Shown piece by piece: positions 20,616 to 61,197 of a DNA stretch of 64,000 bases (position 1 is the first letter of the stretch; each line of letters opens with the position of its first letter). The stretch comes from Promethearchaeota archaeon (GTDB lineage: Archaea; Asgardarchaeota; Lokiarchaeia; Sigyniarchaeales; SOKP01): assembly GCA_019058365.1 (NCBI GenBank), contig JAHPZE010000002.1:160001-224000 (forward strand), written 5' to 3'. The position numbers and the translations under genes were made by a program. The notes below the pieces were generated by a model that worked only from the letters and a program-made list of their open reading frames with translations, searched no databases and had not been told where the DNA came from.

Positions 20616-20641
20616 TTGTATTTATAATGAGGTGAAAATCA

Positions 20642-20791
20642 ATTTCTCTTTACCGGTGTAAAAGATGTAATTATATTTATGATAATGATGAAGAAGATAA
20701 ACCTTTCGAAGAATTAGATGAAAATGAATTTAGATGTCCAAAGTGTAAATCTTCAAAAAAATTTTTTGTGAGAAAAGAGATGCCTAAATAA
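20642..20791 (+). CDS. Rubredoxin (49 aa), probable ATT start
   Basis: Not in ORF track. (M)SLYRCKRCNYIYDNDEEDKPFEELDENEFRCPKCKSSKKFFVRKEMPK; GAGGTGA RBS 6 nt before ATT; in-frame TGA at 20633. Confidence 0.8.
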   Translation: MSLYRCKRCNYIYDNDEEDKPFEELDENEFRCPKCKSSKKFFVRKEMPK

Positions 20792-21937: not shown

Positions 21938-22084
21938 TGAATAAAATATTACTTATTTTTTAATTTTTTTTTATTGTCTAATTTCTGAAAATTTTTATAA
22001 TAAATAGGATATAAGTTTTTAATTTGATTTGAATTAATAATACGAAATAATAATCAAATCCTATTATAAAAAGGTGAAATTGAA

Positions 22085-23290
22085 ATTACTCATTTAGAAT
22101 TAATGAAAGATATCTATTATGTTGGTTATGTAGATTGGGAAGTAAGGAATTTTCATGGATATTCTACTAACCGAGGTAGTAGCTATAATTCATATATAGT
22201 TAAAGGAGAGAAAACTGTACTGATTGATACTGTTAAACGTCCTTATTTTGATTACTTTTTGAAGAACATTAAGGATGTATGCGATCCTTCCGAAATCGAT
22301 TATTTCATTACGAATCATGTTGAGATGGATCATTCTGGGTCATTTCCATTAATTCTCAAATATATTCCTAATGCTGAATTAATTGCTTCAAAAAGAGCGG
22401 TTGATATATTAAAAGCTCATTTTCATGAGGAAGTTGATGAAAATTTATTTAATAAAATTAGAACCGTCGAGGAAGGGGATACTTTAGATATTGGAAATGG
22501 TAAAAAATTTACATTTGTGCCTATTCCAATGATTCATTGGCCCGATTCTATGGTTTCTTTTATGACTGACGAGAATGGGAAAAATATATTATTTTCTAAT
22601 GATGCTTTTGGACAACATTATGCAACATCTAAACGTTGGGATGATGAAAATGATCTTGCTGAAGTATTTCAAGAAGCAGAAAAATATTATGCGAACATCT
22701 TACTTCATCTTTCTGGGTTAATAACAAAGACATTACCTAAGGTTGGAGCATTACCAATCGAAATTATATGTCCTTCTCATGGGATTTGCTGGAGAAATCA
22801 TATTCCTGAAATCTTAGAGAAATATACTAAGTGGAGTAAAGGAGAAATTGATGAAAAAAGTGTTCTTATCGTATATGATACAATGTGGGAAAGCACCGCA
22901 AAAATCGCAAAAGCTTTAACCAATGAAATTAAGCATCGAGGTATTCCAGTAAAACGGTATAGACTAACTAATGTCAACTATTCAGATGTGATAACAGAAG
23001 CTATGAAAGCAAAAGCTATCTTAGTTGGGAGCCCTACTCTAAATAATGGATTATTTCCAACTGTTGCTGAATACTTATCTTATCAAAAGGGTTTAAAGCC
23101 TTTGAATAAGGTTGGATTAGCTTTTGGCTCATTTGGTTGGGGCGGAGGTGCTGTAAAAGAAATCGTGGAATTGATGAAGGTTGCTAAAATTGATGTAATG
23201 GAAGACACAATAGAAATTAAGTTTGTTCCAAGACCAGAAGATTTAGATTTTAAGGAAATTGTAGACAAATTAATTAAAAAAATGGCGTAA
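22085..23290 (+). CDS. fprA: Flavodiiron protein (O2/NO reductase)
   Basis: HVEMDHSG, HWPD, SNDAFG, PSHG, flavodoxin TMWEST, FGSFGWGG. Start extended from ATG 22103 to RBS-supported ATT 22085 (tentative). Confidence 0.93.
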   Translation: MTHLELMKDIYYVGYVDWEVRNFHGYSTNRGSSYNSYIVKGEKTVLIDTVKRPYFDYFLKNIKDVCDPSEIDYFITNHVEMDHSGSFPLILKYIPNAELIASKRAVDILKAHFHEEVDENLFNKIRTVEEGDTLDIGNGKKFTFVPIPMIHWPDSMVSFMTDENGKNILFSNDAFGQHYATSKRWDDENDLAEVFQEAEKYYANILLHLSGLITKTLPKVGALPIEIICPSHGICWRNHIPEILEKYTKWSKGEIDEKSVLIVYDTMWESTAKIAKALTNEIKHRGIPVKRYRLTNVNYSDVITEAMKAKAILVGSPTLNNGLFPTVAEYLSYQKGLKPLNKVGLAFGSFGWGGGAVKEIVELMKVAKIDVMEDTIEIKFVPRPEDLDFKEIVDKLIKKMA

Positions 23291-40814: not shown

Positions 40815-41207
40815 TTAGAAGAGGGGGATGTTATTAATGTCCAAACTTTTAGGAATTCTTTTATTACGTTCTAAATAAGAAACTTCATGTCGTAAATATC
40901 TCCAAGATATTTCGCATTTCTCTAATTTACCATCAACTGACGTTTCAAATTCCCAAGGATTAATTACAATTAAGTCCCCTTTTCTTATCCACACTCTTTT
41001 TTTAATTTTCCCTCGGATTCTCCCAATACGGCGTTTTCCATCTTCACAATAAACACCCATCCTTTCTTGGCCAAATATCTCAACAACCCGCGCAAACATT
41101 TCTCCGTTCTTTCTATAAGGCATTTTTACTCTCGATACTGTTGGGGTTGGAGCGGGAGTGAAACTCCTCCGTCCTTTTTTTTGTTGGTTTTTTTTCATCT
41201 TAGGCAT
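40815..41207 (-). CDS. eif1a: Translation initiation factor aIF-1A
   Basis: CEDGKRRIGRIRGKIKKRVWIRKGD..PW..WRY. Confidence 0.93.
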   Translation of the reverse strand: MPKMKKNQQKKGRRSFTPAPTPTVSRVKMPYRKNGEMFARVVEIFGQERMGVYCEDGKRRIGRIRGKIKKRVWIRKGDLIVINPWEFETSVDGKLEKCEISWRYLRHEVSYLERNKRIPKSLDINNIPLF

Positions 41208-41663: not shown

Positions 41664-41882
41664 CTAAATCCCGCCGGCGATATGGGGAAGGATAACCACT
41701 TCTGATTGCTCATTGATAACGGTATCGGGTGTAGCCTTCTTTCCATCCACTAGAATTCCAAAGTACTTATTTTCTAATTTAAGTTCTTGTAGTAGGTCAG
41801 CTACAGTCATTGTTTTTTCTGGTTTGAACATTTCATACAAGCCAGTATCTAATAATTCAGAAATTTGTTTTATAACAATCAC
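41664..41882 (-). CDS. MoaD/ThiS/SAMP ubiquitin-like protein ending GG-I
   Basis: TVADLL..L, ILVDG, VILPHIAGGI. True start may be ATA 41873. Confidence 0.85.
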   Translation of the reverse strand: MIVIKQISELLDTGLYEMFKPEKTMTVADLLQELKLENKYFGILVDGKKATPDTVINEQSEVVILPHIAGGI

Positions 41883-42049
41883 CTACATTTTTTTATTATT
41901 AATAATATACACGTTATACTATTTAATATTATTCCTTTATAAAAAGTCGTTTCAGAATGCTGTGAATTCTTGTTTTTGAACCAATTATTGCATTTATTTT
42001 AGTGTTTCTAAATAGATTTTCATTTTAAAGAAAACTGAATAGAAAAATT

Positions 42050-43786
42050 ATGGGTTTTAAACAAAAACCAATTTTTTTTATTTTTACATTACTTTCTATA
42101 AATAGACTTTACTTAGTTCGAGGAGATTATAAAATTATTGAAGAAGAGGAATTCATAGATTATACAGAATATTTAGATAAGATAAGAGAATATGAATCTA
42201 AGATTAAGCAATTAACTGATCCAATAGAGAAAGAAAAGAAAATTAAAGAAATGGTCTCAGGGGCTATTAATTTCTCTAATGAAATTGTTGAATCTGGAGA
42301 ATATTTTGAAGCAGGCGAATTTCTTTTCTCTGTTGCTGAAATAATGGAAAGTCTTGATTTTTCAGAAGCACTCAAATTATATAAGCAAATTATTGAACTC
42401 TATAAAAAATTAATTATTGATTATAAGCTTCAAGCGAAATTACATGAGATTGCTGAGTTATACTTACGAATAGCAGACATTTATCATGATAAAATAGTAG
42501 ATTTACATTCTGAAAAAAAAAATATATTGAATAGTATAAAATTTCTAAAGCAGGAAAGTAAACTTTTAAAGGAGTTCAATGAAACCAGAAAACTTGCCCA
42601 AAATTATCAAAATATAGCAGAATTGTTTTTAAAATTTTCAGATTATATGAATGCTATAAAATACTATGAGAAAGCTATCGCAATTTCAAAACATCATAAC
42701 TACTTTGATATGCTGTCTTTCTCTTATCAACAAATAGGATTATGTTATGAAGAAATCGATGATTATAACAAATCCCAAGATGTAATTTTGGATGGTGTTG
42801 AACACTTCTCAAATTTAGCAACTAAATATGAAGAAAAAAGTGATGGTTTAACTTTAGCTCAAATATATCAGATATTAAAGAATCTTTATCACATTTTGGA
42901 TAAAGCGGATCAATATACTATTTTCTCCAAGAAAGAAGCTGGAGCGTATATAGATCTAGCAGAAACTATAGAAAAAAATAAAGAAAACTTTCATAAAATT
43001 GCACGATATTACCGAGGTGCTGCGTTATGTTATCAAGACATTCAAAATAATTTAATTGAATGTGCTTCTTGTTTTGTATTAGCTGGAAATTTTTCAGAAA
43101 AAATTGAGGATTTTAACCAAGCTGCGATAAATCTTGTTGATGCAGCTAACGTATTTAAAGAATTGAAAAATTTTGATATGGCTTATAAACATTATGTTAA
43201 AGCAGGAGATAATTTTTGGAAAATTGGAAGTATAAACGAGTCCACAGAGAGTTATTTAAACGCCTATGATATCGCTATCGAAGGTGAATTAGAATTTAAC
43301 AGATTTGGGATTTTTAATCAAATAATTAGAGGATTAAATAAGATTGCTGAAGAAGGATTAAAAAATAAGCAATTTTTTACTGCTGCAACCCTTATTTTAG
43401 AAAGCATAAAATTTTATGAACAACTGGATACCGCAAAGGATTATCTTTTGAGAGAAATGGTTAATAATCTTTATCGCTACTATTATAGAGCTGCTAACCT
43501 TAAAAATATTGGCCATTCTCACATAGTTCAAAGCTATGTTCTCGCTTCCATCTCATGTATATTAAATGGAAATTTAGAAAAAGCATGGGAAATTATCTCT
43601 GAAATTGAAACCGAAGGGAACACAATTAGAAAATTCAAGGAAATTATAAGAATAATGATTGAACAAGTTTCCGAAGGGAAAGAAGTAGGATTAGAAGTTT
43701 TCCCCTACAATTTAAGAAGGTTAATAGAAAGCTCTGAAGAAATAACATTTCTTTTGAAATTATTTAAAGGATTTAAAATAATATAA
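42050..43786 (+). CDS. SNAP-like/TPR alpha-solenoid protein
   Basis: Repeated AxxYxxAAxxY / CFVLAGNF / AANVFKE helices. Probable true start ATT 42134 after GAGGAG. Confidence 0.78.
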   Translation: MGFKQKPIFFIFTLLSINRLYLVRGDYKIIEEEEFIDYTEYLDKIREYESKIKQLTDPIEKEKKIKEMVSGAINFSNEIVESGEYFEAGEFLFSVAEIMESLDFSEALKLYKQIIELYKKLIIDYKLQAKLHEIAELYLRIADIYHDKIVDLHSEKKNILNSIKFLKQESKLLKEFNETRKLAQNYQNIAELFLKFSDYMNAIKYYEKAIAISKHHNYFDMLSFSYQQIGLCYEEIDDYNKSQDVILDGVEHFSNLATKYEEKSDGLTLAQIYQILKNLYHILDKADQYTIFSKKEAGAYIDLAETIEKNKENFHKIARYYRGAALCYQDIQNNLIECASCFVLAGNFSEKIEDFNQAAINLVDAANVFKELKNFDMAYKHYVKAGDNFWKIGSINESTESYLNAYDIAIEGELEFNRFGIFNQIIRGLNKIAEEGLKNKQFFTAATLILESIKFYEQLDTAKDYLLREMVNNLYRYYYRAANLKNIGHSHIVQSYVLASISCILNGNLEKAWEIISEIETEGNTIRKFKEIIRIMIEQVSEGKEVGLEVFPYNLRRLIESSEEITFLLKLFKGFKII

Positions 43787-55024: not shown

Positions 55025-55297
55025 CTATTCTTTCCTCAAACTTTTATCTCGTTGTGATATTTGATGGCTGTGTATGGCACATGAAATACAGTAGTATTTT
55101 GTCTTACTTGGAGCTTGAATTATCGTTCCTGATTTCTTTAATTCAGTATACATCCGGGAATCAACTAGAGAAACCCTTCTTGTTACAGCTTTAGCTTTGC
55201 TACGAGCAACAGTTCGACCACACTTAGCACACTGAACTTTAGCATACTGTCCTTTACTAGATCCGCTTCTACCGCCACTTTTTCTCTTTTTTGGAAT
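55025..55297 (-). CDS. rps26e: Ribosomal protein eS26
   Basis: PKKRKSGGR, CAKCGR..KA, YCISCAIH. ATT 55297 gives the family MPKKR start; alternative TTG 55306. Confidence 0.95.
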   Translation of the reverse strand: MPKKRKSGGRSGSSKGQYAKVQCAKCGRTVARSKAKAVTRRVSLVDSRMYTELKKSGTIIQAPSKTKYYCISCAIHSHQISQRDKSLRKE

Positions 55298-55440
55298 AAA
55301 AATCAACCATTTTTAATTTTTTCTTGTTGATCTTTAGATTTATAAACAATTAAATTGTTTAAAACTTAAAAAATTTATCCTTAAGCATAAAAAACTGCAA
55401 AAATAAAAAATTAAAACATAATTTATAGAGTTAGCTAATT

Positions 55441-59653: not shown

Positions 59654-60457
59654 TTGAGAACAACCTTACCTTTTAGGCATGAGAATGAAAAGATTTATTT
59701 AAAGAAGATTAATCCCTTAATTCGCTTAATTTTACCATTTATTTTAGTAGTACCTTTTCTTGTTATAGAAGATTTTTATCTGATATTTACAATTTTATTT
59801 GTTTCTTTAACCACTGATTTAATACTTCGGTTAAATGTAATAAAAATTCTTTCAAGATTGAAAGTGGTTATCCCATTTGTTTTTTTAATTACGATCTTTA
59901 TTCCATTTTATGTTGGGGAGACTGTGGTATATATATTCAATATTGGAATTCCAATAATAATTTATAGAGAAGGTTTATATCTAGCTTCTCTTATTTTTTT
60001 AAGAGTTTTTGGAGCTCTATTCATATTTATGTCATTTTTTTCAACTTTAACTTACTCAGAATTTATAGATGCCTTAACCAAATTACGATTACCTTCAGTT
60101 TTCGTAGGATCTTTAATAATAATGTTACATTATATTCCAATCCTAGCAGGGTCTAACAAAAAGATATTAGAAGCACAAGAAATGAGAGGAAAAAAAATTA
60201 CGTCTTATTGGCAAAAATTAAATGCTCACGCTTATATTATGGGTAAGGGTATTATAATGAATATGGAAAGAAGTGAAAGATTATATGAAAGTTTAAAAAT
60301 GCGAGGTTTTTCTGGTAAAATTACATTTGCTCCAAAAAAAATAAAAATGATTGATTTGGTATTATTAGCATTATTCTCATTAATGGTTATTAGTTTTATT
60401 TTTATTATAAACTTAAAATCAATTTATCAAGGTGTTTTTGCATTAATTTTGCCGTAG
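59654..60457 (+). CDS. ECF T component (CbiQ/NikQ)
   Basis: TM helices, AQEMRG and SLKMRGF motifs. Confidence 0.9.
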   Translation: MRTTLPFRHENEKIYLKKINPLIRLILPFILVVPFLVIEDFYLIFTILFVSLTTDLILRLNVIKILSRLKVVIPFVFLITIFIPFYVGETVVYIFNIGIPIIIYREGLYLASLIFLRVFGALFIFMSFFSTLTYSEFIDALTKLRLPSVFVGSLIIMLHYIPILAGSNKKILEAQEMRGKKITSYWQKLNAHAYIMGKGIIMNMERSERLYESLKMRGFSGKITFAPKKIKMIDLVLLALFSLMVISFIFIINLKSIYQGVFALILP

Positions 60458-61197
60458 AAGTAGAAGATCTGAATTTTTGTTATAATTCGGGGTTTAAAAT
60501 TCAAGATATATCGTTTAAATTAGAGGAAAAAGTTATTTGTGGACTTACTGGAAATAACGGTTCCGGAAAAACAACTTTATTAAGATTATTAGTCGGATTA
60601 TTAAAACCTCAATCAGGAAAAATCAAGATTTTTAATAATACACTTACAAGAGATAAACAAGAATTATGGGAGACCAGAAAAACAATTGGTTTTTTATTCC
60701 AAAATCCTGATGACCAACTATTTGCTCCTACTATTGAAGAGGATATTAGCTTTGGAGCAAGAAACCTAAAACTTGATGAGGAAGAAGTACAAAGAAGAGT
60801 CAATTGGGCTTTAAAAGCGGTAGATTTATCAGAATTTAAAGAATACTCCCCATTTAATCTCTCTTGGGGTCAAAGAAAAAGAGCTGCTTTAGCTGGGGTG
60901 CTCGCAATGAAACCCAAATTGCTGATTTTGGATGAACCTTTTGCTAATCTTGATTTTAAATCAATTTACAATCATCTTAAAATTTTAGAAAAACTAAGAA
61001 AAGAAAATGAAATAACTATATTCTTCACATCTCATAATTTATTCTTCATCGAGCATTGGGCAGAATATATGTTACTTTTAGATGAAGGTAAAATCATTTT
61101 TGATGGTGAACCTCATAACGGATTAGGAGATTTAAATGTCAAGAAATTACTTGGATCTTATGATGATATTCTTTCATTAATAAAAAAGAAATATTAG
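60442..61197 (+). CDS. ECF ATPase (CbiO/NikO), ATT start
   Basis: Frame open from 60394: (M)NFAVEVEDL..GNNGSGKTT..FQNPDDQLF..LSWGQRKR..LDEP..SH. The track caught only 60898..61197 because there is no in-frame ATG/GTG/TTG earlier. Confidence 0.9.
   Translation: MNFAVEVEDLNFCYNSGFKIQDISFKLEEKVICGLTGNNGSGKTTLLRLLVGLLKPQSGKIKIFNNTLTRDKQELWETRKTIGFLFQNPDDQLFAPTIEEDISFGARNLKLDEEEVQRRVNWALKAVDLSEFKEYSPFNLSWGQRKRAALAGVLAMKPKLLILDEPFANLDFKSIYNHLKILEKLRKENEITIFFTSHNLFFIEHWAEYMLLLDEGKIIFDGEPHNGLGDLNVKKLLGSYDDILSLIKKKY

Follow-up and report, generated by a model that had tools for sequence, protein, structure and literature searches.

The window analysed here is a stretch of 64,000 nucleotides from a Promethearchaeota archaeon, in which a CbiO-like ECF ATPase gene opens within the last codons of cbiQ, at an ATT codon behind an SD motif. 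The ATPase was identified by an ABC_tran match, PDB matches to CbiO/EcfA2 and its CbiQ and CbiM neighbours, with a score below the NCBIfam equivalog cut-offs; the cbiQ stop lies just past its start, so translational coupling is possible. The initial annotation had found no canonical start before the Walker A motif, and indeed the first in-frame ATG, GTG or TTG is GTG 60898, far past Walker A. It had also claimed the same geometry for ATT codons at four other genes and, as a possibility, for an ATA codon at a sixth. Motif and spacing are present as cited at all six sites (Table 1). The frames opened by the ATT codons encode an ABC/ECF ATPase, a rubredoxin, FprA, a SNAP/TPR protein and eS26, the ATA frame encodes a ThiS/SAMP protein, and full-length family models start at these non-AUG codons. 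The ThiS/SAMP-like protein ends in Gly-Gly-Ile, so C-terminal trimming would be needed, and its gene stands head-to-head with the SNAP/TPR gene, in relatives as well.

Table 1. Genes with candidate near-cognate starts in the window, and their upstream motifs.
Feature	Coordinates	Strand	Remarks
cbiQ, TTG start	59654..60457	+	stop just beyond ATPase start
SD motif AGGTG of ECF ATPase	60430..60434	+	7 nt before ATT; inside cbiQ
CbiO-like ECF ATPase, 251 aa, ATT start 60442	60442..61197	+	overlaps last codons of cbiQ
SD motif GAGGTGA of rubredoxin-like gene	20629..20635	+	6 nt before ATT 20642
Rubredoxin-like gene, 49 aa, ATT start	20642..20791	+	in-frame TGA 3 codons upstream
SD motif AGGTGA of fprA	22072..22077	+	7 nt before ATT 22085
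fprA flavodiiron protein, 401 aa, ATT start	22085..23290	+	rival ATG 22103
SD motif GAGGAG of SNAP/TPR gene	42120..42125	+	8 nt before ATT 42134
SNAP/TPR protein, 550 aa, ATT start	42134..43786	+	rival ATG 42050, not conserved
Ribosomal protein eS26, 90 aa, ATT 55297	55025..55297	-	start aligns to model position 1
Weak SD-like motif of eS26	55303-55308	-	
ThiS/SAMP-like ubiquitin-fold protein, probable ATA start 41873	41664..41873	-	
SD motif AGGTGA of ThiS/SAMP-like gene	41879-41884	-	contains in-frame GTG

Alignment of orthologue N-termini, a check put forward in the initial annotation, placed these codons at Met1, and coding conservation begins there. At eS26, ATT occupies the column in 22 of 23 same-genus genomes and ATA in the other, usually with an in-frame stop 3-5 codons upstream, and six genomes from other families carry ATG (5) or GTG (1). 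The SNAP-like start is ATT in all 20 orthologues while the following Ile codon varies between ATT and ATC. The fprA column holds ATT 13 times, ATC once and ATG twice, and most entries of the rubredoxin column are an ATT preceded by an in-frame stop, the exceptions being ATC, GTT and TTG, once each. For the ECF ATPase, ATT falls at column 1 or 2 in 18 of 19 relatives (the window's column in 12, the next codon in six, twice directly behind a stop), the remaining relative having GTT. ThiS is more mixed (ATA 10, ATG 7, GTG 2), and some of its ATA/ATT cases have no canonical rival; ATA 41873 is a probable start. Retention of ATT at starts was far above that at internal Ile positions, where 52% stay ATT, so selection acts on the codon, which is not simply drifting to other Ile codons; the P values of this comparison are overstated, since related genomes are not independent.

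The true starts might instead be nearby canonical codons, either a GTG, TTG or ATG in the SD motif or a downstream ATG, with ATT as a plain Ile codon or untranslated. Candidates of this kind are present in frame at four window sites in this genome: TTG 55306 (eS26) and GTG 41882 (ThiS) each lie 3 codons upstream inside the SD motif, ATG 22103 (fprA) lies 6 codons downstream and ATG 42050 (SNAP-like) 28 codons upstream. In several ECF ATPase relatives, too, an in-frame ATG stands 4 codons upstream. The orthologue evidence goes against all four candidates: the rival codons lack conservation, and in-frame stops often separate them from the gene. Thirteen SNAP-like orthologues have an in-frame TGA 5 codons upstream, which with the invariant ATT indicates that ATG 42050 is incidental, and ahead of ATG 22103 FprA has conserved residues whose codons differ synonymously. 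No alternative at all precedes the essential domains in the genes for the ECF ATPase, rubredoxin and aIF1, the first in-frame canonical codon of rubredoxin being GTG 20768, near the C-terminus. Taken with the genome-wide counts below, initiation at canonical codons appears a very improbable account of these sites.

The genome is a metagenome-assembled genome (MAG) of 4.74 Mb with 29.5% GC and 6.6% contamination, and its 16S rRNA gene ends GATCACCTCC, with the anti-SD tail intact. ATG starts peak 7-12 nt behind the SD, and near-cognate codons are enriched ~3.4-fold at 8-11 nt. Raw motif-by-spacing counts were too diluted for use. A model-free test was run on genes in which 12 codons or more separate the upstream stop from the first canonical codon, counting codons 8-11 nt behind an SD match of at least 5 nt. 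Near-cognates made up 75 of 138 such codons against 22 expected (P 2e-24), with ATT observed 33 times (10.2 expected), ATA 25 (9.0), ATC 8 (2.1), CTG 6 (0.6) and ACG 3 (0.2), and with AAA, AAT, TTA and TTT depleted. The pattern seen in the window is far beyond chance genome-wide. The near-cognate excess is ~0.2 per SD-led canonical start in this genome, and two same-genus relatives gave the same ratio (13/22 against 3.6 expected). It was 0.06 in an f7 genome of like GC and 0.02 in an f2 genome (400 kb; not significant in so small a sample), the outgroup samples being small throughout (0.4-0.8 Mb). About five strong-SD ATT candidates were seen in the AT-rich Asgard outgroup G065, so a low background may be phylum-wide.

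Among the orthologue-defined cases, 14 of 17 had an SD match of at least 4 nt, compared with 33% of ATG starts (P 5e-5) and a 9% background. This richness fits SD anchoring as a means of making up for the mismatch at the codon. In Lokiarchaea, SD motifs have otherwise been described as rare (PMC12993045).

Start usage was then estimated with an unsupervised mixture model in which any of 61 codons was allowed at 3,743 genes. The model assigned 75.5% of starts to ATG, 10.9% to TTG, 3.6% to ATT, 3.1% to GTG, 2.8% to ATA, 0.8% to ATC, 0.6% to CTG, 0.4% to GTA and 0.3% to ACG (ATC, CTG and ACG together ~1.6%). TTG and GTG, described initially as very frequent, thus total ~14%, and that description was overstated. 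Such a share is ordinary for prokaryotes (PMC4705826). The near-cognate share was ~8%, or 4.8% at high confidence; without its upstream/SD term the model was blind to ATT and ATA, so the ~8% figure rests on that term and covers SD-led cases only. Of 3,133 confident calls, 149 were non-canonical of the ATT, ATA, ATC, CTG, GTA and ACG kinds. The same model gave 5-8% near-cognate starts in size-matched subsets, 7.7% in relatives and ~1.6% in the equally AT-rich f7 Asgard outgroup, though it is noisy on 400-kb pieces. When 10% of starts were replaced by random triplets, calls were not pushed to ATT or ATA (a subset pre-selected for canonical starts, so this control tests drift, not prevalence), and when 10% AAT was spiked in, the model returned 10.9%. 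The model missed the SNAP-like case.

For about a third of the confident near-cognate calls a canonical codon exists upstream, in most cases within the SD at a distance of 3 codons. It sits at exactly that distance in 28 of 145, which speaks for initiation at canonical codons, but 96 of the 145 have no upstream canonical codon, and for these a canonical start would mean a median truncation of 28 aa. Orthologues offer a further estimate: pairwise ATG-anchored comparison over 432 genes, filtered against antisense shadow ORFs, yielded ~13-16 clear near-cognate cases, a floor of ~3-4% (the count was read from the list). Eleven ATT calls by the model had an orthologue, whose codon was ATT in nine, ATG in one and ATC in one. 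Very probably, judging from these sequence comparisons, ~4-8% of genes in this genome and family, aIF1 among them, begin at ATT, ATA, ATC, CTG or ACG behind an RBS. The original claim of ATT initiation therefore stands in that ATT is used, and is refined in that ATA, ATC, CTG and ACG are used as well, a near-cognate habit rather than an ATT-only one.

Across 80 ribosomal-protein loci, ATG was the start in most genes. The uL15 gene begins at ATT here (C34:13127 plus) and in ~22 relatives, with ATG in most others; uS8 begins at ATA in 9 and ACG in 2 among 65; and uL22, uL14, uL6 and eL19 show occasional switches. This survey indicates that the habit is family-wide, with gene-by-gene switching. 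By model call, an actin-like gene (C34 minus, strand offset ~17,949) and a proteasome alpha subunit (C39 plus ~23,600) begin at ATT, and an IscU/NifU gene (C7 plus ~76,490) at ATA.

In the reading we strongly favour, these near-cognate, SD-led codons are real translation starts, accepted by the ordinary initiator tRNA through SD anchoring. A GGTGA/GGAG motif on a leadered or internal-cistron mRNA would pair with the 16S 3' tail and so bring the P site to lie 7-12 nt past the central T of the motif. There the ordinary CAU initiator tRNA would be accepted on a codon with one mismatch, AUU foremost, then AUA, AUC, CUG and ACG, besides UUG and GUG, and the protein would begin with Met. Position, conservation, SD dependence in the orthologue-defined cases, frequency and lineage enrichment are read directly from the alignments and counts above, and from them we infer that initiation takes place at these codons and how efficient it is.

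AUH would be cognate for initiation if the initiator tRNA had a modified wobble base, or if AUA encoded Met as it does in animal mitochondria, and either would explain why ATT, ATA and ATC form the bulk of the non-canonical starts. We consider this very improbable: first- and second-position variants (CTG, ACG) are enriched too, internal ATA aligns to ATA, ATT or ATC 73% of the time and to ATG only 2%, and the starts are SD-dependent. The initiator tRNA gene is also standard, with a CAU anticodon, A1-U72 and three G-C pairs (C35 ~107,635-107,745 plus). ARAGORN wrongly reports this intron-containing gene as tRNA-Ser; introns at unusual positions are seen in many tRNAs of this genome.

No fidelity lesion was seen in aIF1, the two aIF1A proteins, aIF2 alpha, beta and gamma, the uS9 terminal Arg, the uS19 tail or the initiator tRNA, all of which look intact. 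The proposal of relaxed, RBS-driven start selection thus holds for the SD-positioned near-cognate starts, on the evidence of orthologue columns, SD test and mixture model; its 'relaxed' part describes usage rather than a demonstrated defect. In particular, aIF1 and aIF2, whose fidelity residues had been suggested for inspection, both look ordinary and show nothing that would explain the enrichment in this family. The aIF2gamma protein (C37:4754-6319 plus) carries an N-terminal helix-hairpin-helix domain (HHH_5, E 1e-12) and a linker, ~100 extra residues. Long frames of ~520 aa turn up again in f2, in f21 and in some but not all of f1, so the extension does not follow the trait cleanly and was rejected as a cause. 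The two aIF1A paralogues have Lys-rich N-terminal tails (window 40815-41207 minus; C39 ~290,050-290,430 minus). The uS9 protein (C39 ~183,185-183,592 minus) ends in QKSFR in place of the usual QKSYR, keeping the terminal Arg.

Assembly errors or recently broken genes come to mind for a MAG with this level of contamination, but are largely refuted and of negligible probability. A Logan contig matches the window without a difference across 5,883 bases, 60442 among them, the codons are common to ~20 independent genomes, and knocked-out starts showed no drift to ATT or ATA in the model. An indel restoring TTG 60438 was ruled out by the orthologue columns and the same contig. Equally hard to credit is mRNA editing to AUG, which would need several base changes (U-to-G, A-to-G, C-to-G, C-to-U), or a cbiQ-cbiO frameshift fusion supplying the ATPase N-terminus, since despite the cbiQ overlap no slippery run is conserved, the ATT directly follows an in-frame stop in some relatives, and stand-alone genes would be left unexplained.

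The gene for aIF1/SUI1 itself starts at ATT (C35:130370-130684 minus), with no canonical codon before residue 87. This ATT is shared by the whole of genus g1 and by most of family f1, and an in-frame stop precedes it by 2-3 codons. Elsewhere in Asgard, as read by eye, the start is ATA (some f2, f11, f17), CTG (f6, f9), TTG/GTG (f2, f7) or ATG. Ca. Lokiarchaeum sp. GC14_75 falls in the cluster of close aIF1 homologues, in line with a Lokiarchaeia-type Asgard archaeon as the source of this AT-rich genome. In vitro, archaeal aIF1 rejects AUU, as reported for a non-Asgard archaeon, and both IF3 (infC) and eIF1 autoregulate through poor starts (PMC4705826); together these make a feedback loop the likeliest reading. 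By this analogy, we lean towards aIF1 setting the stringency and its own near-cognate start providing negative feedback, like infC and eIF1, which would make AUU starts weak and tunable. More tentatively, the Lokiarchaeia family may hold a near-cognate regulon of several hundred SD-led genes tuned by aIF1 level, with non-AUG autoregulation of aIF1 ancestral in Asgard and a forerunner of eIF1 autoregulation.

AUU and AUA starts are known as isolated cases and are allowed by table 11. Animal mitochondria have leaderless mRNAs, a reassigned code and a modified tRNA, whereas the starts described here are SD-led under the standard code. The two share the use of AUH codons as starts, AUA/AUU initiation being reported for mitochondria (PMC11775629). 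A close parallel is E. coli infC, encoding IF3, with an AUU start and translational autocontrol (Butler 1987, as reviewed in PMC4705826). In both, the gene of a start-codon proofreader begins at AUU behind an SD and this is conserved in relatives; the factor here is aIF1, of the SUI1 family and not homologous to IF3, AUU/AUA starts occur in hundreds of genes rather than a handful, and autocontrol is putative. Eukaryotic eIF1 autoregulates through a poor Kozak context (PMC4705826) and is an orthologous factor with a deliberately poor start, but it uses AUG in poor context with scanning, unlike the SD-anchored near-cognate codon of aIF1. The Kariarchaeaceae AtubA gene has a 'rare ATT start codon' (PMC13394414), likewise in an Asgard gene, at RBS distance and with an N-terminally truncated deposited protein; it is a single Heimdallarchaeia gene, treated as rare, with no genome-wide habit described. 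In Enterococcus faecalis, ebpA has a real ATT start where annotation took a downstream ATG, an isolated bacterial case (PMC4447247). In Haloferax volcanii, ~30% of 160 putative alternative initiation peaks fall on near-cognate codons (PMC7261190), but these sites are secondary and the authors left them aside, unlike the conserved primary starts of core genes described here. Our literature search, with most subscription papers outside its scope, found no prokaryotic lineage with several per cent near-cognate primary starts, no non-AUG start on archaeal aIF1, and one published Asgard ATT case, the tubulin above (PMC13394414).

Gene callers had been predicted to truncate or miss such genes systematically. 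Truncation by ab initio calling was directly seen, the public call of the ECF ATPase by the Logan assembly's gene caller being a 96-aa stub without a Pfam hit, and truncated products of 84, 395 and 511 aa came from other callers. It is not universal, since NCBI homology-based annotation already assigns ATT-started aIF1 (105 aa) and FprA (401 aa) in some records. Lokiarchaeia proteomes underlie claims about the origin of eukaryotes, and each genome may have a few hundred proteins that are absent, cut short or given the wrong start. Gene calls drop the Walker A of the ATPase here and, often, the zinc knuckle of aIF1; according to the model, the affected genes also include those for an actin, a proteasome alpha subunit and several ribosomal proteins. 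Mislabelled MAGs are suggested by several records that show 82-97% uL14 identity and were deposited under the names Hod-, Thor-, Odin- or Hermodarchaeota, or as a bacterium.
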